64,000 bases of DNA from Massalongia carnosa (Eukaryota), in assembly GCA_965645245.1 (NCBI GenBank), contig OZ287074.1:2046001-2110000 (forward strand), in the 5' to 3' direction. A model generated the notes under the pieces. It saw only the letters and a program-made list of their open reading frames with translations, was not told the DNA's origin and did not search any database. This document shows, piece by piece, positions 5,777 to 56,567 of this stretch. Every line of letters begins with the position of its first letter. Position 1 is the first letter of the stretch. A program made the position numbers and the translations under genes.

Positions 5777-5846
5777 TTACGTCGGACCTACATCGAAAGG
5801 TGCCTTTCATAGCACTAGCCCCTGTCCCCCCTCATATTCCACCATC

Positions 5847-13576: not shown

Positions 13577-14719
13577 ATGTCTTCAGCAGAAGAGAACCTC
13601 TCCGAGCTGGATAAGCGTATTCGATTCATTCAGGAACGTCTTCAGGCAGACCCTCAGCAATTCCTGAGTCAAATGGACAACCTAGAAGCCGAAGTAAACC
13701 AACTTCGCAACAATGCCAATACCCCTTCTATTTCCGAGCCCATACCTATCTCAAATCCACCCCCCCCTACCTTGGATCCGCAAATCATGGCCATGATGCA
13801 GCTGCTCCTGGCGTCAAAAAACTCCCTCATCCGCTCCGAAAAGCTCCCGGACATCACGGAGTATGAGGGCGAAGAAGTCAAGCTGGATGCGTGGGAGCAG
13901 TCCCTGATTCAAAGAATGCATGTCAACAATGATCGATACCCGTTCGATCAAGCCAAAATTGCCTATGCCGAAAGCCGACTCACCATAGGCAAAAAGGCTC
14001 ATAACCTAATGAATGCGTACAGGGTCGATGGCCTTTGCGTACTCACCTCATTTGCTGAATGGCGATCAGCCCTCCGCCGCGCATGCGGAAATCCCTACGA
14101 GCAGGAGGATGCTCGCAAATACCTTCGCGATATCCTCAAACAGGGAAGTAGTAGCTTCGAGGAGTACTACAACCTTTTTGCGCAGAAAAAAGACCGGTCC
14201 AAGATGGAAGATGCCAGCCTGATCGATGCCATGAAGGCAAATGTGAATTATTCAACCCAGACCGCAGCCCTAATGTATAGGGTCCCCGGAACCCAAAGGC
14301 AACCAACCACCTTCGACGAGCACGTCACCATGTGGTTGGAGACAGATCGTGGCCTTCGGCAGATCCGCCACATTGCCCCAAAGGCGAACACCACCACTAT
14401 CACCCCGACACCGAAAAAGCCAAACCCGTTATCAGCACTTCCCCCGACAGTCGCTCCCGCTGCCAAAGCACCTGTCGCTTCTCCCGCCTCCCCTGCGCTG
14501 CTCATTGGCGACCCCATGGACCTAAGCTCTGCCATGGCAGCGGTGAAAGGCCAATCGCTCAAAACCGAGGGGGTCCGCAAAATCTGCGAAGACTGGAAGT
14601 TGTGTTTCTACTGCAAATTGCAGCATCCAGGGAAGTCAGCAACTGACTGTCCCAACAAGCGAACCAACCTTCGGAGCATGGAGCTCGAAGCCCCTGATAT
14701 TGATCAGGGAAAAGCCTAG
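13577..14719 (+). CDS. gag: Gag of Gypsy 2
   Basis: 380-aa ORF homologous to the Gypsy 1 Gag (RSEKLPDI, GDPMDL, CFYC). Confidence 0.93.
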   Translation: MSSAEENLSELDKRIRFIQERLQADPQQFLSQMDNLEAEVNQLRNNANTPSISEPIPISNPPPPTLDPQIMAMMQLLLASKNSLIRSEKLPDITEYEGEEVKLDAWEQSLIQRMHVNNDRYPFDQAKIAYAESRLTIGKKAHNLMNAYRVDGLCVLTSFAEWRSALRRACGNPYEQEDARKYLRDILKQGSSSFEEYYNLFAQKKDRSKMEDASLIDAMKANVNYSTQTAALMYRVPGTQRQPTTFDEHVTMWLETDRGLRQIRHIAPKANTTTITPTPKKPNPLSALPPTVAPAAKAPVASPASPALLIGDPMDLSSAMAAVKGQSLKTEGVRKICEDWKLCFYCKLQHPGKSATDCPNKRTNLRSMELEAPDIDQGKA

Positions 14720-17700
14720 TCTCTGCACATCGTCGCGTGCAGGGACTCCCCCCCCTTCTCATTTCCTCATGTTTGATGGCCAGTTTTTCCCCCTCTTTGA
14801 GATCCAATACGCGATTTTCCGCAGCCTCCGCTTTGGAGCTGTTTGAATCAGATAAGACGTTCAGAGACAGTCACATGGTGATGACAGGTATCTTGCGATT
14901 ATCTAGATCTAGGATTAGAACGTATAATCTAATTGATTGTGGTGCATCTGGCTTTTCATTCATCGATGAGAAATTTGCGCATACTAACCAAATTCCCCTT
15001 CATCTTCTCAAATATCCCCGCCGGCTCGAAGGATTCGACGGCCAAAGGGCTCTATCCGGCAATATCACTCATGTGGCCGAAATCACCATGGATCTAGAAG
15101 GTCATGTAGAAAAACTCTTTCTATATGTCACCGGGTTAAAAAATTATCCCATTATCCTGGGCCATCCATGGCTCCGTCGGCATAACGCCATAGCCGATTT
15201 TGGGCATAATACGCTCACCTTTGCCTCCCCCTACTGCCTCACTCACTGTTGCCCCCACCCCGTCAAGCTTCAAGCCGTTGAGGAAGAATTCCTCACCCCA
15301 GCCGAGAGTCGAAAAATCTGGGATGAAGAGATCCTCGAAGACGCCCTAGGAAAAGTTATCAATCAAGACACGTCTATCAGAACGTCGATAACTTCTCTAG
15401 AAGAGGGGGAAGAAATTCCCACAATCAAAAATTCCATTCCTGACAATCCCGTCAAAATCGAGGAATCCATCCCTTTGTTCAAAACCGCGCCGCGCGATTT
15501 CACCTTAATCAAACCCGAAATCAATGAACCCGAACCCCAGCCTCAAAACCCCACCGATGAACCCAGTCGCATTGAAAATGCAATCCAGCAAGGGCTTCCC
15601 CCCCCGAAAATCCGATACCGAAGCCCGTCCAAATTGCGGACATCCACCCAAAGACGTGCTCATCAAGCAGCACGCAAAACCACCCCGCAGATGAATGTCT
15701 GCGAAATCGGAGCTATCTCCTTCAATCGACTGACTCGGAAGAAAAACCACGATAGTTTCGCCCTGTCCATGAAAGAAATTGACCTCTTTCTAGGAAAAAC
15801 CAACCCCGAACCTCTAGTAATGAAAGCCTCACCTAGTTCAGCCCCCGATTTGATCGAAAAAGCCAAAAAACCCAGCCCAGCCTACCAACCATTGCCATCT
15901 CGAGCAAGCCCGCACGAGAAAGAAATCCACCTAGCCTTATTTAAGATGAATAAGGCCCTAACCCTAGCCACCGCCGTGACTCGTGAAGAGTTAGACGCTT
16001 ACCGAGAAAGTAAGAACGTCGACCCAGCCCCCCTTCTGCCCAAGCAATACCACGAATTCCTAGATGTCTTCTCGAAGAAGAAATCCGAAGACTTGCCCCC
16101 CCGCCGTCCCTACGATCATGCCATAAACCTGAAAGAAGGTACGCAGGCCCCTAGTCAAGCCCTGTATGGTATGAGTCGTACCGAAATCGAGGAGCTCCGC
16201 CGCTACCTCGACGAAAATCTAGCCAAGGGATTTATTCGGGCTAGTCGCTCCCACGCCGCCTCCCCGGTGATGTTCGTGAAAAAGCCAGGTGGGGGACTTC
16301 GATTTTGCGTGGATTATCGTGCTCTGAATGCCATCACGATTAAGGATCGCTATCCGCTGCCCTTGATCGCCGAGACCCTGCACCAATTAATCAAAGCCAA
16401 GATATTCACCAAGATAGACATCATCGCCGCCTTCAATATGCTCCGCATACGAGAAGGAGACGAAGAACTCACCGCTTTTCGCACTCGTTTCGGCCTTTTC
16501 GAGTCCTTGGTCCTACCCTTCGGCCTATGCAACGGGCCCGCCTCATTTCAGCACTTCATCAACGATACGCTTCACGAGTATCTTGCTGACTTTTGCACTG
16601 CGTACCTAGATGATATCCTCATCTACAGTGACAATGAGCTGGAGCACGAGGTCCACGTCAAAAAAATCCTGTCTCGACTCCGAGATGCAGGCCTGCAAGC
16701 CGACATCACCAAGTGCAAGTTCCATGTCACCGAAATTGCATACCTAGGGATGATCGTGACCACCGAAGGGATAAAAATGGACCCGGCCAAGGTGGAAACC
16801 GTCGTCAATTGGCCAAACCTCGTCAATGTGAAAGATGTGCAAAGCTTTCTGGGTTTTGCTAACTTTTATAGACGATTCGTGTATGGGTTTAGCGACATAG
16901 CTGGCCCCCTAACCAACCTGACCAAGAAGGAGACGGAATTCCTGTGGACTGACAAATGCCAATTGGCATTCGAAATGCTGAAAAAAGCTTTCACCTCCGA
17001 TGTCATTCTCAGGCATTTCGACCCCGATCGTCCCATCATCGTCGAAACCGATGCCTCCGACTATGTTTCGGGGGGCATTCTTTCTCAATACGACGATGAT
17101 GGGATACTTCACCCCGTCGCCTACTTCTCAAAGAAGCACAATCCCGCCGAGTGCAACTACGAGATCTATGACAAAGAACTGATGGCAATCGTTCGATGTT
17201 TTGAAGAATGGCGACCCGAACTAGAAGGATCTGCCTTCCCCATCAGCGTCATATCCGACCACAAAAACCTGGAGTATTTTGCCTCCACCAAGCAGCTCAG
17301 CCGTCGCCAAGCTAGATGGAGCGAATTTCTCTCTCGATTTGACTTCAAGATAGTCTATCGACCAGGAAAAGCCGGAGGAAAACCGGACGCTCTAACTCGT
17401 CGATCGGGAGATCTTCCTAAAGAAGGGGATGATACGGACGAGCGAAGGAAATTTCAACACCAAACCATTTTGAAAACCGAAAACCTGGATGAGGAAGTCG
17501 CAAAAAGTTATTTGCGATCCATTCTTCTGGCACCAGCTTTCCTAGATGATGCAGATATCGAAGAAGCAGAACCTCAGCTAGATGAGGACCTCATCGATCC
17601 CGATGAGGATATCTCCACGGAGCTCCTCTGGGAACAAGCCCTGACACGAGACCAATTCGCCCCCGAAGTCCTGGAAGCCCTTCGTAATAACGAGAGGCAT

Positions 17701-19164
17701 CACAATCGAATCCAATTAGCCGAATGCGAAGATAGGGACGGTATCTTGTATTTTCGAAACAAGAAATACGTACCTCGATCCGATCGTCTGAGGCTTCGTA
17801 TCATTCAACTCGCTCACGATAGCGTCGCCGGCGGACATCCGGGCCGTTCCAAATGCCATGAGTTGGTAAATCGATCCTACTGGTGGCCCAGCATGCATCA
17901 GTCCATCAAGCGATTTATCCGAAACTGCCACACTTGCAGAAGATCAAAACCATCCCGCCAGCGCTATCAGGGCTGGCTACGCCCACTCCCCCCCCCCGAG
18001 CGCAGATGGCGGGATATTTCCATGGATTATGTAGGCCCCCTGACCCCCAGCACCTTCATGGGAATCACTTATCGCTACATCTTGGTGGTTATAGATCGCC
18101 TGTCCAAGATGCGACATTTCATTCCTATCACGTCCATGGAAGTTGAAGACGCCGCCGATGCGTTCTATCAGAATGTCTGGAAACTACATGGGCTTCCCGA
18201 AGCCATGGTTTCTGATCGTGGCCCCCAATTCGTCTCCGATTTCTGGCAGCTCATGTGCAAGAGGCTGAAAATCGACGCCAAGCTATCCACCGGATACCAC
18301 CCGGAGACCGACGGGCAGACCGAGCGAGCCAACGCCACCATGGAGCACTACCTAAGGGCTTATGTCAACTACATGCAGGATGACTGGGCACAATGGCTTC
18401 CTGGCGCCGAATTCGCCAGCAATAACACCGATTCATCTAGTATCCTGGCCTCCCCCTTCCTAGCCAACTTCGGGCAACATCCCCGCATGGGATTTGAACC
18501 GGAGGAACCCCTGCCGCAAGACCTAACCGCTCAGGGCAGAGCAAACCTAGTTGCAGCCAATCAGTTCGTGAATAAGATGCAGGATATCGACACTCATCTT
18601 CGAGACGAAATGCTGATGGCCCAAGCTTCGTACGAAGCAACTGCAAATGCTAACCGACGTCCCTGCCCCCGCTATTTCGTTGGCGATATGGTGTGGCTAA
18701 GCACCAGAAATATCCAAACCGCTCGCCCCACAGTCAAGCTGGATGACCGAAATATCGGCCCCTACCGCGTCAGCAAGGTGTTTTCCAACCCCTTGATCGT
18801 ACAGCTGGAGCTTCCCGATACCGTCAAAATCCATCCCGTCTTTCACGTCAATCTGTTGCAGCATGATGCCAATGACCCCCTCCCCGGGCAGAGACCGGAG
18901 CCTAGAGACCCCGTCATCGCCGAAGATGGCCAACGAGAATGGTATGTCAATAGGGTATTGGATTCCAAGCTCGACCGACGGTTTCAACCCCCGCTTCTGA
19001 AATACCTAGTGGATTGGGAAGGGCATCCTTCCACCTGGGAGCCTTTCAACTATCTCATCAATTGTCAGCAAGTCATAGACGAATACCACCAAGCCTATCC
19101 CAATGCGGCCGGCCCTCATCTAAACCCCTGTCAAATTCCCCGTTGCCAATGCCACGAGGCATAG
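14707..19164 (+). CDS. pol: Pol of Gypsy 2 (PR-RT-RH-IN-chromodomain), entered by -1 frameshift
   Basis: Same motifs as Gypsy 1 pol; slippery site GGGAAAA at 14707 with an open -1 frame. Confidence 0.95.
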   Translation, partial: GKSLVSAHRRVQGLPPLLISSCLMASFSPSLRSNTRFSAASALELFESDKTFRDSHMVMTGILRLSRSRIRTYNLIDCGASGFSFIDEKFAHTNQIPLHLLKYPRRLEGFDGQRALSGNITHVAEITMDLEGHVEKLFLYVTGLKNYPIILGHPWLRRHNAIADFGHNTLTFASPYCLTHCCPHPVKLQAVEEEFLTPAESRKIWDEEILEDALGKVINQDTSIRTSITSLEEGEEIPTIKNSIPDNPVKIEESIPLFKTAPRDFTLIKPEINEPEPQPQNPTDEPSRIENAIQQGLPPPKIRYRSPSKLRTSTQRRAHQAARKTTPQMNVCEIGAISFNRLTRKKNHDSFALSMKEIDLFLGKTNPEPLVMKASPSSAPDLIEKAKKPSPAYQPLPSRASPHEKEIHLALFKMNKALTLATAVTREELDAYRESKNVDPAPLLPKQYHEFLDVFSKKKSEDLPPRRPYDHAINLKEGTQAPSQALYGMSRTEIEELRRYLDENLAKGFIRASRSHAASPVMFVKKPGGGLRFCVDYRALNAITIKDRYPLPLIAETLHQLIKAKIFTKIDIIAAFNMLRIREGDEELTAFRTRFGLFESLVLPFGLCNGPASFQHFINDTLHEYLADFCTAYLDDILIYSDNELEHEVHVKKILSRLRDAGLQADITKCKFHVTEIAYLGMIVTTEGIKMDPAKVETVVNWPNLVNVKDVQSFLGFANFYRRFVYGFSDIAGPLTNLTKKETEFLWTDKCQLAFEMLKKAFTSDVILRHFDPDRPIIVETDASDYVSGGILSQYDDDGILHPVAYFSKKHNPAECNYEIYDKELMAIVRCFEEWRPELEGSAFPISVISDHKNLEYFASTKQLSRRQARWSEFLSRFDFKIVYRPGKAGGKPDALTRRSGDLPKEGDDTDERRKFQHQTILKTENLDEEVAKSYLRSILLAPAFLDDADIEEAEPQLDEDLIDPDEDISTELLWEQALTRDQFAPEVLEALRNNERHHNRIQLAECEDRDGILYFRNKKYVPRSDRLRLRIIQLAHDSVAGGHPGRSKCHELVNRSYWWPSMHQSIKRFIRNCHTCRRSKPSRQRYQGWLRPLPPPERRWRDISMDYVGPLTPSTFMGITYRYILVVIDRLSKMRHFIPITSMEVEDAADAFYQNVWKLHGLPEAMVSDRGPQFVSDFWQLMCKRLKIDAKLSTGYHPETDGQTERANATMEHYLRAYVNYMQDDWAQWLPGAEFASNNTDSSSILASPFLANFGQHPRMGFEPEEPLPQDLTAQGRANLVAANQFVNKMQDIDTHLRDEMLMAQASYEATANANRRPCPRYFVGDMVWLSTRNIQTARPTVKLDDRNIGPYRVSKVFSNPLIVQLELPDTVKIHPVFHVNLLQHDANDPLPGQRPEPRDPVIAEDGQREWYVNRVLDSKLDRRFQPPLLKYLVDWEGHPSTWEPFNYLINCQQVIDEYHQAYPNAAGPHLNPCQIPRCQCHEA

Positions 19165-31253: not shown

Positions 31254-32793
31254 TCAAAAGTTGAACGTTACATCCTTCTCAGAGTTAATGTTTGTCCCTT
31301 GGACCGTCTTGCCACCGTTCGAAGTGCTTTGGTTGTGGATATTCAGCGTGCTTCCTCCCTGTTGCACTCTGGGGCCTGGCCCGTGCATCTGTGCTGCTGG
31401 CGAACCATCGTAGTACGGGGAAGCCTGCCGAGGATACGGCGATGGAGAAGGTTGCCGCTGTTCAAGATAGTAATGCTGAGGCTGCAAAGGGTAGGGTGAT
31501 GAAGCCGAATGCGGCTGTGAAAGAGAGTAAGCTTGCCATGATGCAGGCTGCTGTGGCCTATACGGTAGATAGGAGTCCGTATTGTGAGCAGACCCTATGG
31601 CTTTGACCCATCTTCGAAGTTCGCTCGAGATTGCAAGGTATCCGGGATCTTCTTTGCTACTGAACTTGGTCATGTCCATGTGATTTGCTCGAATGCCGAT
31701 GGCATTGTAGGCTGGCAGGATTGCAGAATACTTGGGGACAATCTAGAAAATACTATGCAGTTAGCCCCGAACTTCTAGTAAGCGTGTAGAGTTGGTGCTG
31801 CCCGATGCAGTTATCTGGCACCCGCAAGAAATAATGAAATCCTCAGTTCACCTCGCCGACGCCTCTGACTGGAAGCTCTTCGAAGAAACAAGTAATTTTC
31901 AATGGTGGCAATCCTCGACTGTGGCGCGCTCGAAGCATCGTATGAAACTCCTGCTGGATGCGAGCGAGTACCTCCGACTCAGGTTTCAGGACGTTGAGCA
32001 GGTTCACATTGGTCGTCTTTACTACACTTGCGATATTGCCAAATATGCTGGCCCAATTTGCGGTGAGCGAGCCGCAATGCGGTGTACCCAAAAAGCATAC
32101 GCCCACGGTGCAATCAAGAAGTCCTTGAATATGCGCTTCGGCGCTGTTCTTCGATGATAGCAAAGCCTGGATTGCAGCACGATCAGCCCGTAGCCTCGAT
32201 GAATGGAAGAAGATTGCTGACATCTTCGAAAACTAGGCCGCCAAGGCTGTGCGTCACGAATATTAATGGTCGATCTTCAGTCTCTGTCCTCTCGCGCAGC
32301 TGCGCCAGAGCATTGATGAGATTCAGTGCATGATTGCCAATCCGATTTTGGGATGCCATCGCCCAGAAATGTGTGACGTCGGCATCATAGCCAAAGGTCA
32401 ATCTGCGTGATTTGGGCACATCATCCTTGAGGAAATGCGCAGGCCAGAATATTCCCGACTCCTTGTCTAACCATGTCGTCTCCCGGTTGCCTGTAAGCCC
32501 ATGGACAAATACGACGCTACAGGTATATTAGCTCACAACTAGCAATAAAAAGCGTTGCGTCTTACAATGACACGAAGGAAGCTATTTGAAAAAACATACT
32601 CTGAAACCGCGTCCGCACAATCATGACAATTCTTCGCGTCCGCACAATCATGACAATTCTTCAGCCCATAATCACCATGTGTGGAGTACCTGCAATCGTT
32701 AACACCATCTTTCTAAGACCCTCATTTTGTAAATATATACTTTTGGAGATTTTCTAAACCTTCAGTCTCTGAATTTGATTGACGATTGAACAT
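31254..32793 (-). CDS. SesB-like alpha/beta-hydrolase (PGAP1/DUF676-type) with Q/P/Y-rich linker and C-terminal putative amyloid motif
   Basis: Five exons (32793-32741, 32689-32600, 32516-32222, 32166-31852, 31742-31254), phases consistent, about 413 aa. Motifs VFVHGL, TFGYDA, THSLGG, FLGTPH.GS, CFFEE, NHMDMTKF. Confidence 0.9.
32608..32661. repeat. Perfect 27-bp tandem duplication in hydrolase exon 2
   Basis: CGCGTCCGCACAATCATGACAATTCTT x2, encoding KNCHDCADA twice on the minus strand. Confidence 0.95.
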
Positions 32794-33193
32794 CTTCAGC
32801 ATCTTTATCGGATTCTTGGAGACCGTCTCACTCCAAGTGCCTGGGTCTCGACAGTTGAGATCAGAGACGGGTTTGGCTTTTGAACAGCTTTTAATGTAGC
32901 CGGAGCAGCTGAGGTTTCAGCTTCAGCTGTATCCGATCCAATAAGGCATAACGTGGCCGCAATTGGGGGCTTGCCTTATTGGGGGCGGGTGAGGCTGAAA
33001 ATCGATCAGTCGTCTTAGGCAGCCTCGTAGGTTCGCAAGGCTTCGTCCATTGTTACTTGTTTGTATACTCCGCTCTTTCTTTTCGCAACGCTCCCGGATT
33101 CAGCAATCTATATCGTCCGAGGTCGAGCACCCTCTAATAGCAAATCCATTTTTGGAAATCTGATGGTGTTGGCTTTGGACGACGGGGGTTGCA

Positions 33194-36100
33194 ATGTCGA
33201 AAGGCAAAATCAGTCAAGCCGGAAACAAGATCACTGGTACCATCCACAACACAGGAATTGGTTTCTTTGGCGCCAACCTCAATGTTGGTGGTAATTTCGT
33301 CCTGAGTATGTTCCCTTCCGCTTCACACAAGATACTGTGATATTGTGTTGACTTCTTTGCAGATGCTGGGCAAACAGTCGAAGCCAGAGGGAAAGAATGC
33401 CTTGCGGCGCTCTTTATCACGAATCCCGTCGACGATCGGGCGAAAATTGTTAGTTTTAAGGGTCGCGTTCTTGCTGGCACTTGCGATTGGATAATTGATC
33501 ACTCCCGGTATAGGTCATGGAAGAGTGTCCAAACACGCTCCCAGCTGTTGTGGGTTTCCGGGGGAGCGGGCATGGGAAAGACCATGCTGTCCACCTTCCT
33601 TACACAGGAACTCGAGAAGGAATCAGAAAACCCAGATAATACTGTCACTCTGTACTACTTCTGTGACGGCGGCGACGAGAAAAAGAACAACGCCGTGTCC
33701 ATTCTCCGAGGGCTCATCTTCTTGCTTCTGCGAGCAAAACCAAGTTTGATGAATGTGTTGCTTCCAGAATATGAAATCCAAAAAGAAAACCTTTTCACCC
33801 ACACGGCGATTGAAGCATTGTGGAGAATATTTGAATCTATGGTCTTAGATTCAGTTACCGGCCAGGTCTACTGTATTATTGACGGCCTAGATGAATGTGA
33901 CCAAGGCTCACTTTGGCATCTTTTGAAAAAGATCAAGAATTTCTACATGGATAACGCTAGCGAGGAGGGAGCATGGGGTAGGAGCGCACCGGCGCAATTA
34001 CAATCGTCCACTATTGGTGTGGGGCTTAAGATGGTTCTCGTCAGTCGTGAGGCACCGAGATGTCTTGTTGAAGAGCTATCGGGGTTCCCACGAGTTCAGC
34101 TCGGAGCTGCCGCCCAAAAGGAGTCAAAAACAAACACCCAGACATCCAGAGCTCCCAAGTTAGCAGACGTCGCAGCCGCTGTACTTCGGAAAGCTAAGCT
34201 TGACAAGGCTGGCACCATATCCACTCAAGTGCAACCAAGCTCGCAACAAACGAGACCTCGCCCTCATCAAGCGCAGAACGAAACCCTTCTTGATCAAAGG
34301 AATGCTGGGAGTATTCTATCAGAGCCTATTGCTCCACCTATGGATACACCCGTTGGGCCCACCGCCCAGCCCAATAGGTTCACCGATGAAAAACCGGATG
34401 CAGAACCCGATTCCGTTGGTGACGGAGTCGACGAAGACCTTCCATCAGAGGAGAGTAGTCAGAACCCGGCGTTACAACTCTACATAGATGCTAAACTAGA
34501 GGAGCTATCGTCCGAGATGCACTACCCACAAGGTCTACGTGCATCCATTACCCGCGCTTTTCAGATTCGCGGTGATGGCACATTCCTCTGGGTCGACCTG
34601 GCGGTTGGTGAGCTGAGGAGAGCCCCGTCCCAGCAGGCTGAAGAAATAATTGGTCACTTACCCCTCGGGCTTGATGAGATGTATTGCCAAATATTGCGCC
34701 GAGTCCCAGCGCACCTTGTGGGATTAGTTGCCGCCATTCTGCGCTGGGTTTTTGCAGCACGGCGCCCACTATATTTGCACGAACTTAGCATTGCACTCAA
34801 GCTACCGATTCATAACCCTGCCGATCCTATTGGACTTCTTGAACAGGGTATCGCAGCTTGCAGAGAAATGATCGCAGTTAACGAAGACCAGGCCGTGAAT
34901 ACCGTTCATAGTTCTGCTAAGGATTTCCTGACTGGAGACTCACCACAGTTGGTGAACGACCCAGACCTCTTTCGGTTTCGTGTTTGCACCGAAGAGGTTG
35001 ACCGAGAGATTTCGTATTTTTGCCTTGATTATCTTGAGCAGGGATGCCTGCAAGAAGGTCCCATTTCATATCAAGAAAATTCAGACCGCTATGACAAGCG
35101 TGTAAATCAGTTCCCCTTCTTGCCTTATGCCGCATTATTCTGGCCAGACCATCTCCGCTCAGCCTCAAACGTATCTCTCAACTTGTTTTCGCCTTTCTTC
35201 AGAGCAGAATCGGCAATCAGGAAGAGCTGGTGGCATACCTATTGGGTCGCGACAAGCGGCAAGGCAAAGTTTCTTGCTCCTAGGAATTTCACGCTGTTGC
35301 ATTTGGCGGCCTATTTGAATCTTCGAACATTGGCCGAACAGCTTGAGCATAGAGGTGGTCTGCATTCTCGATTAGACAAGATAGATAGCCATGGGGGGTC
35401 TCCCCTCGCTTATACAGTGGAAAGGGGGCACGTCTCCATGTTCGACTTCCTAATTGAGCGAGGAGCGAAACAAGATAATAATCATGGGGAAACTCTTCTT
35501 GAGAAGGCTTGCCGAAAGGGTCAAATAAATATTGTCCAGCATCTTTTGAATTTGGGCTACAACGTCAATGAGCAAGAAAAGAACATTAATGCCATCGAGA
35601 GTCTCATGGTAATGGTGCGCTGGCTTCCCGGTGCTTTTAACGAGGGCTTGGACTTGAATGGCGATGTATGGCGGCTTATGCTGCGAGACACTGGCAACGG
35701 AGGAACAGCACTGCATTCAGCTGCATTGTATGGCCACGCTGCTATCGTGGAAATGCTGCTAGAAAGAGAGGCTAATGTTAACGCGGTAACCTCCAAGGAC
35801 TGGACTGCCTTACACCTTGCAGCATGGACTGGGCAAATTGAATGCGTCAAAGCTCTCCTAGCTAGAGGTGCTCTTCCTGATGCAAAGACGGATTTAGGTT
35901 GGATTCCATTCCACTGCGCTGCGTCTCGAGCAAAGCTTGCGGTAGTTCAAAGTTTCCTCGATCTCGGCATTTCTGTCGACACGATGACCGCCAAACAAAA
36001 GACCGCCTTACATCTGTCGGCATATTCGGGGCACGCATCTGTTGTGCGCTTGCTGGTCGAGCGAGGTGCTGACCTAGAAGCGAAGTCATATAAAGGGGAA

Positions 36101-37378
36101 ACGCCACTTCACCTTGCTGCCAGAGCCGGGAAACCCGAAGTCGTAGAACTCATCCTAATGCTGGGAGCCGATAGATCGGTGCTATCAAATGCTGGCCAAA
36201 CTCCAACCGAACTAGCGAAGCAGGTAGTATCCAAAGAACACCTGGAGGCTATTCAGATACTAGAAACTTTTGGAACGCCAGACTACCAGCCATGGCAACC
36301 ATCTCCGGATCCGAAGACTAAATCCACTGCGGCCGATGATGCAGCTCTAAACATGGTAGACGCGAACCAGAAGCTGCATAACGAACAACATGCGCCTAGT
36401 CTTAGAGTCCCACCTACTTCGAAATTGAATATTAACATAAACCCTCCAACGGACGCCTATGCGACCCCGTCATTTCAAGCTAGTTTGAGGTTTGGGACGC
36501 AGCAACCGCACTATCAACCTTATCGAACGGCATCGGCGCCGATTGTGCCATCCACTCAGCAGTACACACCAGCTTCTTTTTCTCCGCCAGTGATGAGTCC
36601 ACCTCCACCATATACGCCTGCTCCCTCAGGCGTGCCGGCATTCCAGGCATTTCCGGAGAAAGGTCAATTTGCTCCAGCCACTCCTTTCGTTCCCCAACCA
36701 AACTCAAACCCTTGGCCGTCGCCTGCTTCCCCTGGACCCTTGGCGCTAGCTGACGGACGACAACCACTCACCTACGAGAATACGCCGAGAAATCCTGTAC
36801 TCGGTTTTCAAACCCCACAAACCTCGTTGATGTCACCGCCACAACCCAATCCTCCGCAGCACCAGCAATCACCCCATCCTCCCGCATCATCTTTATCGTA
36901 CACGTCTCAACCTCCTCAACCGTCGCAACGACCGATGAATCATCCTGCCTATTCATATGGGCCTCCGATAACAGCTCACATCAATCAGCCGGCATATAAT
37001 CCTCCATCACGCACAGCACCAGAACCGACCTTAGCGACATTCACCCCCCATGCTGGCATGCCCACAGGATTATACACAACGTCGGGGCCGACCATTTTCA
37101 CAGGTTCCCCGTCGTCCCCGCCGGCCCCAGCTCTAAGTACCGCAGCCAGCTATAGTTCCCAATACGAGTACAACGCCCCAGCACTCACCCAGCCTTATAT
37201 TCCGGAGGCTCAATCCTCCGCTTATCTGTCCATCAGCTTCACCCCTTCATCGCAGACTCGGCCGCCCGAGCAATATGCCTCACGGCCAGGGACGCCGAAT
37301 CTGTACTTTGCGCCGCCGCCTTCGCCGTCTCTGCAAAAGAAGAAGAGCTGGCGGGACTTGGGCGGGATCTTGAAGTGA
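33194..37378 (+). CDS. Fungal NLR: short N-terminal motif + NACHT + ankyrin repeats + Pro/Gln-rich tail (about 1375 aa)
   Basis: Exon 1 33194-33305, intron 33306-33362, exon 2 in frame with ORF 33548..37378. CL..LF.T.P..DR..I...KG...GTCDWI, Walker A GGAGMGKT, Walker B IIDGLDE, GTFLWV, multiple TALHLAA ankyrin repeats. Confidence 0.93.
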
Positions 37379-37515: not shown

Positions 37516-37589
37516 TAATCGTGTCAAGAAACTAGTAATCGAAGCGTAGTAGGCGACTCGCTTCGATTACTAGTATCTTGACACGATTA
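37516..37589. repeat. 74-nt near-perfect inverted repeat (hairpin)
   Basis: TAATCGTGTCAAGAAACTAGTAATCGAAGCG..CGCTTCGATTACTAGTATCTTGACACGATTA. Confidence 0.9.
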
Positions 37590-41181: not shown

Positions 41182-43369
41182 CGGGATTTCCCGGTGAAAC
41201 GCCGAACCCGGTGACAACGCCGAATTTTAGAAAATTACTCCGCACCACCTTACCCTCTTCAACCATGAATAACACTACTACCACCGCGCCAATTGACCAA
41301 GCAATTGCTAATTTAGAATCGCAAGAGCGACCAAATATACTTGCAACTGCTAAGAAATTTGGCCTAGTCGAAAGTACTCTTCGGCGGCGATGGAAAGGCC
41401 AATCGGTCTCCCGACGGGAGGCTTCATCCACACATAAGCAACGCCTCACAACGGTCCAAGAAGAGGCTCTAATCTCACAAATCAATCGATTAACCGACAG
41501 AGGAATACCTCCTACCCCTACAATTGTGCGCAATTTGGCAGAAGAAATGATCCAGTCGTCAGTAGGTAGGAACTGGGCGGGAGAATTCACTAAGCGAAAT
41601 CAAGATAGACTTAAAAGTCTATATTTACGCAACATGGACAGTCTACGCATAAAGTCTGAGTATGCACCTACATTCAAACAATTCTATGATCAGGTCCGTA
41701 GTTTTGACAATATAACTGCCCCTAATTGCGTCGCATTTGTGCCTAATAGTCAACATTTCTTCTAGTTGATCGCGGGCATCGAAAAATATAACATCACAGC
41801 AGATAACGTCTATAATTGGGACGAAAAGGGCTTTTTAATTGGCATGGCCTCTGCCGTAAAGCGAATAATGACTCTTGAAGCTCTAGAATCGGGGCGCATA
41901 ACCCATGCGAGTCAAGATGGAAGTCGTGAATTCATCAGTCTACTGGCTTGCATATGCGCAAACGGTACCGCTTTACCACCCGCGCTGATCTACAGAGGCG
42001 ATTCAAAGACACTTCAGGATACATGGTTAGAAGATTGGAGTGTAGATCAGCAAGCTTTCTTCGCGGTCTCCTCCAATGGATGGAGTTGTGACCTGCTTGG
42101 TCTGAACTGGCTTGAGCGTGTTTTTGAACGATGTACGAAGCAAATGGGGCATAGAAGGCGGTTGCTGGTGGTGGATGGTCATTCTAGCCACGTCAATATG
42201 AAATTCATCAATAAATGCGATGAACTACGAATTCTATTGATGATTCTACCATCGCATACTACGCACCGGTTGCAACCCCTAGATGTTTCATTGTTTGCCC
42301 CCCTGGCCCGGTATTATACGAATGGCCTCAATGATATGATGTTTAACTCATTGGGCACAGTGAACATATCAAAAAGAGTCTTCTGGGGTGTTTTTTGGCC
42401 TGCCTGGCAGAAGGCCTTCAATGAAAAGAACATAAACTCTGGGTTTGAGAAGACAGGCATATGGCCGTACAATCCAAACATCCTACTAGATAAAATCACC
42501 AAATCGCCTTCACCAGAGGAGATACCTAACGTCACACAAGCACCCAAGACACCTATGACGGGACGGGCGGTTCGTCGCATACAAAAAGCCTACGTAAAAG
42601 AGCCAAATAGAGTTTTGTTGTCCAAGATATTTGCTGCAAATGAGCGTCTCGCAGCTAATCGTTCTATTGATCAACACGTAATTAGGGGCCTATGTGAGGC
42701 ACTTAAAGAGGAAAAGAAACGACGAAAACGTGGTAAACGCCTGAATTTGCTAGGTGAAGAAGATTCTGGGCCTCAATTTTCAGTCCGGGTAGGGTGGCAG
42801 CGGCCAGAGCCTATCAGGCTTCAAAAGATGACGAAAAGACACGACGGCAACAGGATCTCGCTGAAAAACGGGCACAATTAGTTTTTAACAAGTCGCTGAA
42901 GGAAAAAGAAAAGCAAGAACGGGCCCTAGTTGCTATAGAAAAAAAACGATTGATCGAGGAGGCGAGGCAGTCTAAAGCGGTCGAAAAGCAGGCCCAAAAA
43001 GAATTGAAAAACGCAAGTACTAAGCCTTCTGAATTATCGCTGAGGTTGAAATCGACATCTACAGGGCCAAAGCAGGTGCCAAAGTGTCGAAAGCAGTCCC
43101 AGGAGCAAAGTGATGATGTCGAGGTGGTTGGTGGAGTGGAAATGATAATTTCTCGTACATCTAGGGGGAGAGAGGTGCGAAAGCCAAATCATTTTGGCGA
43201 ATAGAATTTTTCTTCTATACATCAAATTGGACACCTTCTATGTACAATTTACCAAAGCTTCAGTGTATCAATCGTGGTGGTTGTCGCATGGTAGCAAAAA
43301 ATAGCAAAGTGCCGAAATTTAGAAATTTCGGCGTTCTCACCGGGTTCGGCGTTTCACCGGGAAATCCCG
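41182..43369 (+). mobile_element. Pogo/Fot1 DNA transposon C inserted in B's transposase
   Basis: TIRs CGGGATTTCCCGGTGAAACGCCGAACCCGG..., TA on both sides. Removing C restores B's frame (AHKL|KAPSRRWF). Confidence 0.95.
41265..43204 (+). pseudogene. Transposase of element C (HTH-psq/CENPB + DDE_1), one intron, C-terminal frameshift
   Basis: Exon 41265-41693, intron 41694-41765; NWDEKGF, VDGHSSH, QPLDVS; 1-nt deletion near 42780. Confidence 0.85.
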
Positions 43370-45457: not shown

Positions 45458-48400
45458 TCAAGTCCTGCCAGTACTTGTTTTGCCTGTAGGTTCAACCGTG
45501 GTTGAATTGTTATCCATGTGTAATTGTCTGACAAACGAGAAGAACTTAACATGAGTGAGAGGTTTTGTCAGTCCGTCTGCTATCATGTCTTCTGTTGAGA
45601 CATAGGTGAGGTCGATTCGTCCCTCGAGGACCTCGTTCCGGATGAAGTGATGCTGAATGTCTATGTGCTTAGTCCTAGCGTGTAAGACAGGATTGTTGGC
45701 AAGGGCTATGGCGCTTTGATTGTCGCCTTTTAATGCGATGGTGCCTTCTCCTCTTAACACATTTACCGTTGGGGATTCGTTGTCTATAGTCATTAATCCA
45801 AGTTCGGTCATCAGTAAACGTAGCCATGTGGCCTCCTTTGCTGCTAAGGTAAGTGCCATATACTCTGCTTCAGTTGATGATAATGCGACGGTTGTTTGTC
45901 TTTTGGAGCACCAGCTTATGGGTCCATTGTTTAACATGAAGACATAACCAGACGTTGACTTGCGTTCTTCCTTGTCTCCGGCCCAGTCGGAATCGGAATA
46001 CCCTTGTATTGTCAGGTCTCCTCCGCCGAAGGTGATACCTCTGTCCTTGGTAGCGCTAAGATACCTGAGAATATGTTTGGCCGCTTCCATGTGTGTCCTG
46101 CTTGGATTTTTCGAATGTCGACTGACTGCAGATGTTGCAAAAGCAATGTCGGGTCTTGTTTCTATCATCGCGAACATGATGGATCCAACAATGGTTTGAT
46201 ATTGTCTAATGTCTTTGTCGGAGGCTTGGGATTCATTGGTGAAAAGACATTCTTCTCGCATGGGAGTATTGGCTGTTTTTGCATTTTGCATATGAAATCT
46301 TTCTAGCACTTTCTCAATATAGGTTGGTTGAGATAGCTTGATGATCCTTTTGACTCGATCTCGTTCGACCTTGAGACCTAAGTAGTAACTGATCGGTCCC
46401 ATGTCTACCATTTTGAATGCTAGCTTGAGTTGTCTCTTGACTTCGGTGATCATTTGGGAGCCCTTTGGACCTATGATGTTCAGATCATCAACGAAAGAAG
46501 TAACGATGGGACCTTTTATGCCTTGAGGTGTGGCGAAGATGCTGTGGTCTGCGTGAAGCTTCTCGAGTCCTAATTTTTGCAGCAGAAAGGTAGAAAGTCG
46601 TTCATACCAGAGGCGAGGAGACTGTTTTAGACCATACAGGGCCTTGTTCAGTTTACATATCATGCCGGGTACGTCATAACCTTTTGGCATGTGAACATAG
46701 ATGAGTTGATCAATGAAGCCATTGAGGAAAGCTGTCACTATATCGAGTTGTTCGATATCCAAGTCATGATAAGCAGCTAATGCGAATATCAGACGAAAGG
46801 CCATCGGCTTGACCACAGAAGCGAAGGTTTGATCGAAGTCTACTCCGTATTGTTGTAGATATCCCTTGACGACCCATCTAGCTTTGAAGCGGGTGATGTT
46901 TCCATTCACATCTTTCTTTAGCTTATATACCCACTTACCGCTTAATGCTATGTGTCCAAGTTTCATGGTTTCGATAGGTACAGTGTCCCAGGTGTTGTTT
47001 TCCATGAGGCTCTTGTGCTCTTCGTTCATTGCCAGGCTCCATTCGTTTGAATAGCTGGAGTTCATTGCTTGATGATATGTCTGTGGCTCAGCTATGTCTG
47101 ATTGAACGAACGCATCAAGATCGTTTAGGTTTGCTGCTCCCTCTTTTTCCATTTCCTTGGCTAGAAGTATGAGTGGATCTTCTTCATCTTTGTCTACCAT
47201 TGTGAAGATATGCTCTGGTTCAGTCAGTGCTTCATTAGACAGAAGGGCCAGTACTTGTGCTACATGAGCATGTTTCCTGGGCCTACCTCTTCCTCGTTTT
47301 GAAGCTTCAGTGACTTCGGGATTTAACCGTGGTTGAGTTCTGGAAGAGTTGGAAATGGCTTTAGGCAGATTCTCATCTTCTTCAACAATAATCACGGAAT
47401 CGTATGTAGGCAGATCAGTCTCATTCTTGTCTATAGCATCTTCATGAATTCGTAGATCTTTGACTCGAATGACCTTGTAGTCTTTTTCCAGGAAGACGCG
47501 ATAGATAGTGTTTCCGTCATATCCACACAAGATTCCTTTCTGAGCTCTTGGGGCGAATTTTGCAGACTTGCTGTTCATTCCCTTTCGCTCTTGTTCATGA
47601 ATCAATGCATAAACGGTGGATCCAAGTACTCTCAAGTGATCTAGCTTGGGTGGTTTGTTCTCAAAGACTTCATAGGGGGTTTTACCTCCCAAGGCGTTTG
47701 TTGGTCTAACGTTTTTGGTGTGAACCATGGCTAAAACGACTTCTGTCCACAGATAATCTGGAATTCCTCCACCAATAACTGTGCATCTTGTCATGTCCAT
47801 GATGGTCCTACCCATTCGTTCTGCGACACCGTTTTCTTCTTGAGAATATGTGGCGGAAGGTTCATATATTATACCTTGTTGAAGGAACCAGTTATCTGAC
47901 TTGTGACTGCGTAGTTCTGTGCCGAAGTCAGTGCGAAAGATGCTTATTGGCTTTGCTTTCCCAGATTTGTTTTGAGCCATGTTGTTGTATGTCAACAAGT
48001 GATCAAACCATTCACTTTTTTTGTGTCCCGTATAAACATGAGTGTATCTGCTGGCGTCACAGGTGAAGGTGAAGAAGTAGAGCTCTTCAAGGAGCCCTAC
48101 TGGTTTGATTGGTCCTACCATGTCGGAGTTTATTTTCTGGAAGATCTCCGTGGCTTTCTCTTGTGGAGTTCGATTGTATATCTTGGTGGCTTTCCCCATC
48201 TCGCAAGCATGACAGAACCAACCCTGATTGATATCGTCAACAAACGTTATGTTCAGTGTTTTCAGGTACTTTCGGCATGTCGGTATGTTGAGATGACCAA
48301 GACGTGCATGCCAAGTTGTGAGCTTGAATTTTATGAAAGTTTGATGAATAGCGACGTTTTCTTCTTGATAAGTGTTCTCGTCAATCGTGTTCAGATGCAT

Positions 48401-48835
48401 CCTCATATCTAGAGTGTCTATGGTTTGTAGCATGAAGTTGCTGTTAACTCTGGGTACATAACATATGATTTTCTTGGTAGGTTCAAGGAACAGTCTCCAG
48501 TTCGAGTTATCATAGAAAATAGAATGCTGATTGAGTAGTCCAAGGCTGACGAGGCTCACAGGGCATTGAGGAATGTAAAGTACATTGTTGAGGGTCAAAA
48601 CTGAACAAGGTGATCCGTCCTGTGATGTCAAAGTTTTTTGAATAGTCCCTCTTCCTGGCGATGTGCCTGTGGACGTTGATCCTGCTAGTCCTGTAGGATA
48701 GTCTATGTAGTCAGTGAAAGAGGGTCTGTGATTGCATACATGCATATCTGCCGCGCTGTCCAATAGCCAAGAACTTCTACTGAGACTTGTCATAGTCATG
48801 ATCTTCTGTAGTCTAACGGTCATGACCTTTGTGAG
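45458..48835 (-). CDS. pol: Copia Pol (PR-IN-RT-RH), in frame with gag after a UGA
   Basis: WLLDSAA protease, WHARLGH, integrase ENGVAER, FKARWV, LYGLKQSPR, FVDD, YSDSDW, KHIDI, ADGLTK. Confidence 0.95.
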   Translation of the reverse strand, partial: LTKVMTVRLQKIMTMTSLSRSSWLLDSAADMHVCNHRPSFTDYIDYPTGLAGSTSTGTSPGRGTIQKTLTSQDGSPCSVLTLNNVLYIPQCPVSLVSLGLLNQHSIFYDNSNWRLFLEPTKKIICYVPRVNSNFMLQTIDTLDMRMHLNTIDENTYQEENVAIHQTFIKFKLTTWHARLGHLNIPTCRKYLKTLNITFVDDINQGWFCHACEMGKATKIYNRTPQEKATEIFQKINSDMVGPIKPVGLLEELYFFTFTCDASRYTHVYTGHKKSEWFDHLLTYNNMAQNKSGKAKPISIFRTDFGTELRSHKSDNWFLQQGIIYEPSATYSQEENGVAERMGRTIMDMTRCTVIGGGIPDYLWTEVVLAMVHTKNVRPTNALGGKTPYEVFENKPPKLDHLRVLGSTVYALIHEQERKGMNSKSAKFAPRAQKGILCGYDGNTIYRVFLEKDYKVIRVKDLRIHEDAIDKNETDLPTYDSVIIVEEDENLPKAISNSSRTQPRLNPEVTEASKRGRGRPRKHAHVAQVLALLSNEALTEPEHIFTMVDKDEEDPLILLAKEMEKEGAANLNDLDAFVQSDIAEPQTYHQAMNSSYSNEWSLAMNEEHKSLMENNTWDTVPIETMKLGHIALSGKWVYKLKKDVNGNITRFKARWVVKGYLQQYGVDFDQTFASVVKPMAFRLIFALAAYHDLDIEQLDIVTAFLNGFIDQLIYVHMPKGYDVPGMICKLNKALYGLKQSPRLWYERLSTFLLQKLGLEKLHADHSIFATPQGIKGPIVTSFVDDLNIIGPKGSQMITEVKRQLKLAFKMVDMGPISYYLGLKVERDRVKRIIKLSQPTYIEKVLERFHMQNAKTANTPMREECLFTNESQASDKDIRQYQTIVGSIMFAMIETRPDIAFATSAVSRHSKNPSRTHMEAAKHILRYLSATKDRGITFGGGDLTIQGYSDSDWAGDKEERKSTSGYVFMLNNGPISWCSKRQTTVALSSTEAEYMALTLAAKEATWLRLLMTELGLMTIDNESPTVNVLRGEGTIALKGDNQSAIALANNPVLHARTKHIDIQHHFIRNEVLEGRIDLTYVSTEDMIADGLTKPLTHVKFFSFVRQLHMDNNSTTVEPTGKTSTGRT

Positions 48836-53839: not shown

Positions 53840-56567
53840 TGTTGAAATAGGTATATGACTATGGCTATATGACTATGTAATAATAAAGGTATGTATGACC
53901 GTGATGTTAAGGATTAAGAGTTGCTAGGCAGCAATCTTTTCCTATTACTGGTCACCCCCTTCTAAGCGAGGTGATCTTATCTTATCTTGGGACTAAGCCT
54001 AATGCGGCATCTACTCGAGATATGCAACAAACCTAGATATGCAACAGCACTAGTAGGGGTTTACCCGAAGTTTGACCGATAATCTTCTGATTAGCATTGC
54101 CAGTCTAACTTATCGAATTTGGCTGCAGTATCTTCAGAGCACTAATAATTGCAAGCAACGGCCGAATTAATGGTTTAAACAACTGAAGCTATAGAAAGCT
54201 TTGGTGCTTAGGCCCCGCCCGCTAGGCCAGCTCAGTGCTATATTATACATGATGTAGTATATAAAGCAGTCAATCTCGCCTTCTAGGAGGTCTCACTATC
54301 CTCCCAGAGGCCGTATATACAGGCAATACCGTCACAGCGTCATGTATTCCCTCACTTCGGGCCTTGACTGACTTCCTGCCTCTTTTACCTCTCATCCCTT
54401 TATCCCTAACATCCTGTACCTCAGTCTGTATAGCGAACTCCGGATAAGCAAGGCTCTGGCGGAGCAAGCGTTGAAGGGTCTAAATCGATCGAAATTGGCT
54501 GGATAGCCTGTGCCTTCTTATTTGTCTTGTTTTTCAGACTTTGAGGTTTGGGCTCTGCAATGAGACTCCACACAGATTTCCAGGCCTCCCAGAACTCCTT
54601 CTCTTGTTTATCTGCACGCTTCTTCTGCTCCTCTGTGTGCTTCTTCATCTCCCGTTCTTCGAGGACGTCATGATTCATTATACGTCCTTTACCGAGCTGT
54701 TGATTTGAACGTTTGGCCTTCTCCTTTTTACACTGTTGATTCTCCAACAATTCAGTATTTGTAGTCTCTAGTAACACCTTCTCGACGTACGTTTTTGATC
54801 CAGCCTTGCCTAGCTTCATAATCTCTTGCTGGGTAGCCTTCCCATCAATAGCTTTGTGGACGATTTCATCGAATTCAGCTGCATTTCTTGGAGTCTTGAT
54901 AGGAGCGGATATAGTGACGCCATCCGACGATCGGAAGAATACTTCTGGTGGCGTATACGGCCTTAGAGTAACAGTGTTTATCACATCTTTCGGCTGTGGC
55001 AATGTCTTCAAAAGACTCTCTAGATCCAGAGGAAATAGAAGTGCTTTCTGCCAAGCACTGAGAATAGTAGTGAGTTTGGCTGTCTCACTCCGAGCTCGTT
55101 GATATAAATCAATGAAATCGACCTTATCCACGTTAGCACTGCTATCCGACTTTATCAGACGCAGTAGCTTGGTCCGATAGAGACTCCCCAGTGGCTGAAA
55201 GAAACCCACATCTAACGGCTGGAGGACGTGTGTTGTGTGAGCTGGAAGGCAAGCAAGAATAATCTTCTCATTGATACAGAATTGGATAACTTCCGACGTA
55301 ATATGAGAAGCATGCCCGTCGAGGATAAGCAAGCGATATTCGCCTTGTTGTCGCTTCTTCGAATATGGATCAAATACACGTTTAAACCATTCGAAAGCGA
55401 GTGTATTATTGGTCCAGCCCCTGTCACTGATAGCGATGTTATTAACTCGCTCCAATTCATTCATCTAGGCCTTCCGTTGAGTCTTTGCTTTAAAGATGAC
55501 GAAAGCAGGAAGAAGTGCTCCATTTGCAGAGATACATTCAAGAAGAGACACCCATTCCCGGCTCCCATTCTGACACATGTATGCATTGAGGTTTGCCTTT
55601 GAAACCACTACTTTCTGCTTGCCTGCTTGACCTACTGCAAAGCCCTTCTCGTCCATATTATATACGTCTCTTTTTTCAATGTTGTATTGCTTCATTGTGT
55701 CCGAAAAGAACTTAAACCAATGATTGATTGTTTCGTAATTGACTGCATTGATGCGCTCTTTATCTAACGGAGTGCAAAAGCGAGATTTTAACGAATGATG
55801 TCGATTCAAGAACTTCTCCACCCAGTGACATCCCAATGGGGTATGATTTCCACTTTTTTTGAGAATCTCTTCTGCTTGTAACTTGATTCGATAAATCATT
55901 GGAGGGAAGCTCCATTTGGCCAATAATTCGATCCAGTTTACTAAGCATTCCTCCTCAATGAAAGTGAGGCGTTGTTGGGCTTGATGAGCTTTGTGATGAG
56001 GTAATGTTTCTCCTTTGTATCGTCGATATAATGTTGTATGGCAAACATTGTATTTGTTGGCATATTGGCGGAATGAAGGCTTCTCTTGCTTAGGCTTTAT
56101 TTCAGGCTGGAGTTCATATTCATCCCACCGCTTGATAGCTTTGGCAAAGGAGATCAGAGCAAGCTCCATGCGCTCACGCCTTGGGATGACCTCTGTATCT
56201 GATTCCTCTTCTAATGGGTCTTCCTCAACAGCTTGCATGATATTTTGGTAACGGAGGGATGGCTAGGCCAGGCGCTGAGACCAATTATAGCTTCAATGGC
56301 CAGGGTTAAGGGTTGGAGAGTAGGTATAGGTCAATTGGCTGATTTGTAGAGACGCTACAGTATAAATTTTGGTAGGAATGCTTTAGCATCGGATAAACAT
56401 CGGATATAAACCCCTACTAGTGCTGTTGCATATCTAGGTTTGTTGCATATCTCAGTCATCCCGAGTACGGTTTCCGTAGATGATCTGTCCATCTAGGGCA
56501 GCCGTAGGTGCTATGTTCATCGTACTGATAGGTGTTCATTGTGCTGGTAGGAATTGGATATTCAACA
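53840..56567 (-). mobile_element. Copia solo LTR (diverged relative of the 45161 LTR) split by Pogo element D
   Basis: Pieces 53840-54013 and 56468-56567 align to the 290-bp LTR; TSD ACACT (53835-53839 / 56568-56572). Confidence 0.92.
54014..56465 (-). mobile_element. Pogo/Fot1 DNA transposon D
   Basis: TA flanks; TIRs with a GATATGCAACA repeat (left copy lacks 9 nt). Transposase 56238..about 54270 (NMDEKGF, LDGHASH, QPLDVG) with in-frame TAG at 55465 and a probable frameshift near 54450. Confidence 0.92.

Follow-up and report, generated by a model that had tools for sequence, protein, structure and literature searches.

Fungal amyloid-signalling systems couple a NOD-like receptor (NLR) to an effector through related motifs, and according to the accessible portion of PMC12261475, five fungal families were counted in 2025, namely HRAM, sigma, PP and PUASM1-2. 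Here, a 64,000-nucleotide stretch of Massalongia carnosa DNA (assembly GCA_965645245.1, contig OZ287074.1, positions 2,046,001 to 2,110,000, forward strand), the whole of which is called the window below, was analysed for a pair of divergent genes at 31254-37378. One gene encodes an NLR with NACHT and ankyrin (ANK) domains, and the other a SesB-like lipase. The two form a real NLR/lipase signalling pair. They probably constitute a two-gene NLR/effector module of the fungal amyloid-signalling kind, with a motif that would lie outside the HRAM, PP, sigma and PUASM families.

The sigma locus of Nectria haematococca (sesA/sesB/het-eN) resembles the window locus in that a SesB-type alpha/beta-hydrolase adjoins a NACHT-ankyrin NLR, and the motif is likewise located at the hydrolase C-terminus and at the NLR N-terminus. 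The motif region of het-eN was also first missed owing to an intron near the 5' end, as stated in the available sections of PMC3321046. Unlike the sigma locus, the window family does not carry the sigma signature (units A and B, three units; Pfam NACHT_sigma), and the 64-kb window holds no sesA/HeLo-like gene with the motif. The lipases P0140, P0145, P0147 and P0157, which are sigma-type by our reading of their C-termini, also end differently from the window family. In the PP cluster hellp/sbp/pnt1 of Chaetomium globosum, a putative lipase, SBP, likewise has a C-terminal amyloid motif and is controlled by a neighbouring NLR that bears this same motif N-terminally (PMC7885112, accessible part). 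However, that NLR is of the NB-ARC/TPR type, whereas the window NLR is of the NACHT/ANK type; the PP motif is related to RHIM, and its G-h-Q-h-G core is not in the window family; and the cluster has a HELLP-like third gene, which the window module lacks. The het-S/nwd2 system, which uses HRAM, is likewise an adjacent, often divergent pair, with a single copy few residues from the NLR N-terminus and with motifs in concerted evolution. The effector side of the window family shows a partial K-h-x-h-G-N resemblance to HRAM, and the Candelaria orthologue of the lipase has two copies, but these are about 110 residues apart as against 6-18 in HRAM (PMC4518210, in the text available), and the het-S effector is a HeLo or HeLo-like domain, not a lipase. 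PUASM, as described in the accessible text of PMC9815663, is likewise a recently added fungal family, discovered by matching an NLR N-terminus to the C-terminus of a neighbour, and serves one enzymatic effector class, which is PNP_UDP in its case and a lipase in the window.

At the window locus, the NLR gene lies on the + strand and the lipase gene on the opposite strand, head to head, with start codons 391-400 bp apart. The region between the divergent start codons, common to both genes, extends from 32803 to 33193, and measures 400 bp if the lipase ATG is the one at 32793. The NLR coding sequence comprises 4,128 nucleotides in two exons (33194-33305 and 33363-37378, +). Exon 1, identified by its translation and by homologue N-termini, starts with the ATG at 33194 and contains 37 codons plus 1 nucleotide; it encodes the receptor-side motif peptide, whose core covers about residues 6-37 (33209-33304, +). 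On this exon, the motif hidden Markov model (HMM) scored 49.3 bits, the window sequence being itself part of the HMM. Intron 1 is 57 nucleotides long (33306-33362, +; GTATGT...CAG, phase 1). Exon 2, defined from its open reading frame (ORF) and Pfam, encodes a NACHT-type P-loop NTPase that begins about 75 residues into the protein (NPHP3_N/NACHT, about 33476-33940; NPHP3_N 4.9e-36), then a winged helix (about 34724-34942; GPIID_WHD 6.3e-8), then ankyrin repeats (about 35471-36265; Ank_2 7.2e-46), which is an NLR architecture. All these domain coordinates, on the + strand, were computed from residue ranges. The proline profile then shows a tail that is 20-33% Pro over about 360 residues (about 36287-37375, +), followed by the stop. 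Ankyrin repeats with high DNA identity were searched for and none was found. An earlier note on this DNA, made from the sequence alone, had described two divergent genes 400 bp apart, which corresponds to start codons 33194 and 32793, and an NLR devoid of an N-terminal effector domain, which agrees with the absence of any Pfam match at E<=10 on the 37-residue exon; both peptides that it quoted are present in the sequence, and translation and gene models place the 37-residue peptide on its own exon.

An upstream start exon is needed for the NLR because exon 2 has no in-frame ATG in the conserved stretch ahead of Walker A. A start at a downstream ATG was also considered and was rejected, the first in-frame Met of exon 2 being located inside Walker A. 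Intron 1 holds an in-frame stop, and therefore a prokaryote-style ORF call yields a 48-residue peptide (P0181) and a headless NLR; the model P0001 is this headless NLR and begins inside Walker A. The join of the two exons reads ...GGNFVL-N-AGQTVE..., and both the motif and the ..L-N-A-G.. junction recur at the N-termini of homologous NLRs. The predicted splice is supported by this protein conservation across the junction and by a separate motif exon in the metagenomic locus L009.

The SesB-like alpha/beta-hydrolase (lipase) gene (31254-32802, -) was modelled with five exons (32802-32741, 32689-32600, 32516-32222, 32166-31852 and 31742-31254, -). Its product has 416 residues, or 413 counted from the second ATG at 32793, which is probably the true start since the homologues begin with MFSR. 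The borders of exons 3, 4 and 5 were reproduced by tblastn of the Candelaria pacifica orthologue P0121, with 81-84% identity. By best hits, and on similarity alone, the source of the window is probably a relative of Candelaria/Candelina. A THSLGG nucleophile elbow is encoded in exon 3 and an NHMDMTKF histidine motif in exon 5, and the Ser and His columns are invariant across the lipase homologue alignment. In the window lipase, Pfam detected a weak DUF676/Abhydrolase_6 in exon 3, and the orthologues P0121, P0122, P0125 and P0128 carry a precomputed PF05057 annotation. With its alpha/beta-hydrolase core, xHSLGG elbow and conserved His, the protein falls in the SesB-like lipase class, the catalytic assignment being that of the Ser and His columns. 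The effector-side motif corresponds to the last 39 residues, PRVQQGG...GGKTVQGTNINSEKDVTFNF (31257-31373, -), located after a Pro/Gln/Tyr-rich linker, and is 68% identical to the C-terminal copy of Candelaria and 65% identical to that of P0179; it aligns with the NLR-motif profile by way of the lipase-side profile. Exon 2 of the lipase contains a perfect 27-nucleotide tandem duplication (32608-32662, -; Tandem Repeats Finder, 2.0 copies, 100% matches), which adds the nine residues KNCHDCADA in frame just ahead of the VFVHGL strand; the homologues have a single copy. It was also observed that the NLR tail (36287-37375, +) is Pro/Gln/Ser/Tyr-rich and includes PPPY, and that the lipase linker (31374-31620, -) is of similar composition. 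The Candelaria lipase linker matches the window NLR tail at E 0.004 (tblastn), which may reflect shared composition only.

Among the 120 listed NLR homologues, 30 have a short extension of 25-75 residues ahead of a conserved C..ALF..P.DD anchor, and 22 of these extensions were judged by eye to bear the motif, with P0008, P0040, P0048, P0050, P0054, P0068, P0083 and P0093 left out. The remaining homologues have PNP_UDP, SesA/HeLo-like, HET or lipase domains, or are truncated models. The NLR has neither an enzymatic nor a pore-forming N-terminal domain. The receptor-side consensus is G/N-rich and spans about 30 residues (Q-x-G-N-x-I-x-G-x-h-x-N-x-G-x-x-h-x-G-N-N-F-x-G-N-h-h). A related C-terminus is present in the lipase relatives P0121, P0122, P0124, P0125, P0126 and P0128, to which P0179 and P0183-P0185 were added later, and its consensus is Q-G-G-N-x-I-x-G-x-x-N-x-x-G-G-K-x-V-Q-G-N-N-h...V-x-F. 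The motif begins about 6-8 residues from the NLR N-terminus, the same distance as reported for HRAM and PP motifs in the accessible part of PMC9815663, and the effector copy forms the very end of the lipase, with a proline-rich linker ahead of it. In the metagenomic loci L003, L005 and L019, motif and NACHT are found in one uninterrupted ORF (Pfam NACHT, and ANK), and in L009 the motif occupies its own small exon, as in the window NLR. Lipase copies mostly exceed the NLR copies by 2-3 residues, and in the window lipase copy 3 residues are inserted with respect to its NLR. Among the anchors that the earlier note had aligned between the two window peptides, (I/V)xQxG, GxN(L/I)N and the hydrophobic end hold in the family alignments, but IHN is unaligned and falls, in the lipase, within this insertion.

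Two further observations concern the lipase copies. The Candelaria lipase P0121 has a second, internal motif copy (residues about 365-395), about 110 residues upstream of the C-terminal one. This internal copy is identical to its own NLR at 18 of 31 positions, which is much closer than the C-terminal copy; a double copy in one effector is reminiscent of r1/r2 of HET-s, but the spacer here is very long. The C-termini of the Dothideomycetes lipases P0129 and P0158 (..ITQGGSEFHGPTTVSGGSVFQGNF..) resemble further family members, with only E 0.31 against the HMM built from NLRs alone.

Homology between the two sides was assessed at the level of profiles. The HMM built from NLR N-termini alone matched the lipase C-termini of P0125 (E 2.2e-6), P0122 (2.4e-6), P0128 (3.8e-5) and P0124 (3.1e-4) among 59 targets. 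Alignment of the NLR and lipase alignments with hhalign gave a probability of 95.4% and a score of 37.3; none of 200 column shuffles reached this score (mean 8.3, sd 1.8, maximum 13.6), and the reversed alignment gave 13.3. When the alignments were enlarged to 20 NLRs (A4) and 11 lipases (A5), the probability was 95.8% (E 7e-9). A homologue search with the motif alignment returned, among the best 7997 candidates, mostly the input proteins together with P0179.

The gene pair itself is also conserved. The lipase and NLR genes have adjacent locus tags in Candelaria pacifica (P0121/P0003, ..7452/..7453) and in Geoglossum simile (P0122/P0004, ..3962/..3963), and they lie on one contig each in Colletotrichum shisoi and Plectosphaerella plurivora. 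Candelaria, Geoglossum and four metagenomic lineages all show the head-to-head arrangement. A first metagenome scan with P0179 as query found no loci; a scan with the lipase alignment found 80, and in 41 of them 2 kb or more of sequence preceded the lipase. An NLR-type motif was present upstream, on the opposite strand, in seven of these 41 (L003, L005-L007, L008/L009 and L019). They comprise L019 and every one of the 6 loci with a lipase that shares at least 50% identity with the query; no such motif was present at the other 34 loci, which have more distant lipases.

Receptor and effector motifs evolve in concert. Using the 6 complete pairs, the cognate pairing gave the highest summed motif score, a result reached by 1/720 permutations, or by 2/720 when C-terminal copies only were used. 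Both sides have lineage-specific residues in common, such as GSNIS in Geoglossum, GMN in Candelaria and G(T/M)I(I/V)QG in L005. Moreover, P0047 combines the same domain in one protein with a NACHT-ANK of the same clade, its lipase part being 63-65% identical to the exons of the window lipase, and many lipase-NLR fusions occur among the listed lipase homologues. Profile homology, conserved synteny, concerted evolution and the fused P0047 thus bear out the NLR/lipase-effector module proposed in the earlier note; the profile and co-occurrence analyses that it had outlined for homologous pairs gave positive results, and the motif is conserved in the orthologous pairs of Candelaria, Geoglossum and the metagenomic lineages.

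A separate observation was made at L005, where the lipase (5211-6122, +) ends in ..NTGMIVQGPVYGNPTM, a tail in which G-G-K is absent and which the lipase-motif HMM did not detect. Its tail still mirrors that of its own NLR (1436-4228, -; ..NSGTIIQGNFQGS..), as in lineage-specific co-drift.

The motif is found almost exclusively at NLR N-termini and lipase C-termini. When 1.84 billion representative proteins were scanned by HMMER with a 37-position profile, 17 matches were obtained at E<=1e-3, including 11 NLR N-termini or short first-exon ORFs starting with the motif and 4 lipase C-terminal exons. The other 2 are long repeat proteins matched in several internal stretches, which we take as unrelated. 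In six frames of the window, only the two expected sites scored, both being part of the profile; a third motif-bearing gene was sought in these frames across the 64 kb and was not found, the next best E being 2.5. So far, the motif has been seen with no effector except this lipase subclade.

In order to compare the motif with described families, definitions were taken from the accessible portions of PMC3321046, PMC4518210, PMC7885112 and PMC9815663 and applied as Pfam models, patterns and descriptions. None of 26 motif sequences matched Pfam HET-s_218-289 (PF11558), PP (PF17046, the PP motif according to the available text of PMC12261475) or sigma (PF17106; NACHT_sigma) at E<=10. The PP motif is a pseudopalindrome, FxGx(x)NxGLQLxGxNxGxL; its core G-h-Q-h-G was found in 0/31 sequences and a loose PP form in 1/31; the sigma units A (GxGxQFN) and B (GGTQNINT), loose forms included, and the PUASM pattern FxGxGxQxxGxGxF were each found in 0/31. 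A profile search against all PDB chain sequences, which presumably include the HET-s and HELLF prion domains, gave nothing at E<=10. By these Pfam and pattern tests and by the feature counts given below, the motif is placed outside the HRAM, PP, sigma and PUASM definitions, in line with the statement in the earlier note that it was not clearly HRAM, PP or sigma.

It is probable that the motif family is still missing from the catalogues. File 2 of the supplement of PMC9815663, the 2022 catalogue, contains NLRs of 1737 residues from Lomentospora prolificans and of 1313 residues from Talaromyces amestolkiae, labelled 'unannotated, NACHT ANK, not-clustered, noasm', which we equated by species and length with P0019 and P0045. 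Neither is present in the paired-motif tables of that paper, whose profiles, HRAM included, were run on the catalogue NLRs as far as its accessible text shows. Six motif peptides were looked for in the searchable PMC9815663 supplements and none was found there; the search did not extend to file 9, file 10 or the.hmm/.fa files, which could contain the motif. A 2025 survey of Sordariales reuses the 2022 profiles (PMC12258605, available part). Full-text searching found no paper describing the motif, subscription literature not being covered.

It is unlikely, although worth serious consideration, that the module is real and its motif a far-diverged branch of the HET-s-related (HRAM) family. The HET-s repeat, as defined in the accessible text of PMC3321046, has 21 residues with N1, N18, hydrophobic residues at 3, 6, 14 and 16, G17 (G10) and a positive residue at 13. 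On the effector side of the present family, an invariant K-x-h-x-G is followed by N and preceded by G-G, which recalls the positive 13, hydrophobics 14/16 and G17-N18 of HET-s as well as the Q-in-core variants of HRAM4/5 (PMC4518210, in the part available). The two copies in the Candelaria lipase are reminiscent of r1/r2 of HET-s, and the single NLR copy near the N-terminus in a divergent pair is reminiscent of nwd2. Against such a branch stand the absence of matches to the Pfam HET-s_218-289 model and in the PDB profile search, and the 'noasm' label of two members scanned with the PMC9815663 HRAM profiles. HET-s feature counts were also not above those of shuffled sequences: the best 21-residue window scored 3.9/9 on the NLR side (shuffles 4.08 +/- 0.79) and 4.9/9 on the lipase side (shuffles 3.98 +/- 0.82), the latter being reached by 23% of shuffles and not significant.

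The NLR/lipase pair most likely works by amyloid templating, in analogy with het-S/nwd2, sesB/het-eN and sbp/pnt1. In the mechanism suggested by these systems, a ligand would bind the ankyrin repeats and the NACHT domains would oligomerise. The clustered N-terminal motifs would then take a cross-beta fold, which would template the C-terminal motif of the lipase. The lipase would be activated or relocated, leading to membrane damage or cell death. The amyloid nature of the motif fold is suggested by the same three analogies.

Several findings, given in this and the next two paragraphs, weigh against this templating module. Strict in-register templating is awkward because most effector copies are longer than the receptor copies. 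The common motif might instead be a non-amyloid interaction or targeting element, for example one that provides mutual binding or contacts a third partner or membrane site via a soluble beta-hairpin or short linear motif, which we regard as quite unlikely. Homology, synteny and concerted evolution need a specific interaction only, and the length differences between receptor and effector would fit a looser interaction better than in-register stacking. Yet all experimentally studied fungal cases with such a layout and motif placement, as covered by the accessible parts of PMC3321046, PMC7885112 and PMC9815663, operate by prion-like templating. The motif also has the usual amyloid-motif format, being G/N-rich with alternating hydrophobic residues; in the window lipase, the 39 aligned residues of the copy contain no proline and adjoin a proline-rich linker.

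Other such findings concern the way in which the family was delimited and the relation between the two window peptides. The motif-bearing NLRs for the first profile were picked by eye, and the exon 1-exon 2 splice is a prediction from comparative evidence. When the 37-residue peptide was aligned with the last 45 residues of the lipase (Smith-Waterman), 2143/5000 composition-preserving shuffles reached the observed score with gap 11/1, and 348/5000 with gap 6/1. Receptor and effector motifs are related beyond chance at the family level only, not within the window alone. Taken by itself, this pairwise result would suit two low-complexity G/N-rich tails that are adjacent by chance and have no relation. 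At the family level, chance adjacency is refuted by the profile match (0/200 shuffles), by co-occurrence (7/7 informative close loci vs 0/34), by the permutation test and by the specificity of the 1.84-billion-protein scan, and we regard it as extremely improbable.

The window pair is the weakest example of the family. Its NLR motif scored 75 and 54 against the Candelaria and Geoglossum lipases and 32 against its own lipase, which is the lowest cognate score of the six pairs (tied with L009), and the NLR-only HMM gave E 1.4 on the window lipase (59 targets). The window lipase, the Candelaria C-terminal copy and P0179 represent the most diverged version of the motif, which makes receptor-lipase coupling in the window less certain. 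The NLR/lipase pair also lies inside a transposon-rich stretch, in which decay is possible despite intact frames. We considered that the family is real and the window pair decaying or uncoupled, its lipase motif having drifted until unresponsive to the neighbouring NLR, which we find unlikely. Besides the low cognate score, the higher non-cognate scores and the poor HMM match, the 3-residue insertion, the transposon-rich surroundings and the fresh 27-nucleotide duplication in the lipase would agree with it, as would the fact that no NLR-like internal copy of the Candelaria type was found in the window lipase by tblastn of P0121. On the other hand, the reading frames of both window genes are uninterrupted and their splice sites canonical. 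Among the window, Candelaria and P0179, the diverged C-terminal copy moreover shows strong conservation, with 65-68% identity over 40 residues, next to linkers that differ in length and sequence, which indicates selection on the copy and argues for function.

The surroundings include two gypsy-type pol ORFs (RVT_1, RNase H, integrase; 7022-11419, +, and 14704-19164, +), each after a gag-sized ORF of about 410 residues, a copia-type pol (RVT_2; 45458-48835, -) and three DDE_1 transposase ORFs (41766-42881, +; 54421-55464, -; 60840-61814, +). Just 3' of the NLR stop, a 31-nucleotide inverted repeat (97% complementary, 12-nucleotide spacer) is found at 37516-37589; contig depth there is about 14x that of the flanks and many contig ends occur there, so that it is a multi-copy element resembling a miniature inverted-repeat transposable element. 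An ORF at 2028-2924 (-) has an aldo/keto reductase domain (E 1.2e-25) and is unrelated to the NLR/lipase pair.

Beyond the window, the motif could represent a sixth fungal amyloid-signalling motif family, a reading that we advance tentatively and hold somewhat short of probable. Such a family would operate exclusively between NLRs of the NACHT-ankyrin type and lipases of the SesB-like type, and would be distributed over Pezizomycotina (Sordariomycetes, Dothideomycetes, Eurotiomycetes, Geoglossomycetes and the lichen-forming Candelariales), with an effector copy usually 2-3 residues longer owing to an added G-K before the last strand. With such a longer copy, templating would need either to accept a break in register or to proceed one strand at a time, in contrast to the HET-s model with its strict register. 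A short first exon that carries the signalling motif, as in the window NLR, escapes gene callers. If the sixth-family reading is true, the catalogue would be extended by a family that serves a single receptor type and a single enzymatic effector. Such a family would also annotate a set of NLRs now listed as 'unannotated / noasm', and would provide a natural experiment on the difference in length that templating partners can tolerate. As it holds a two-copy effector (Candelaria), single-copy effectors, and pairs with and without insertions, the family would be useful for studies of cross-seeding barriers.

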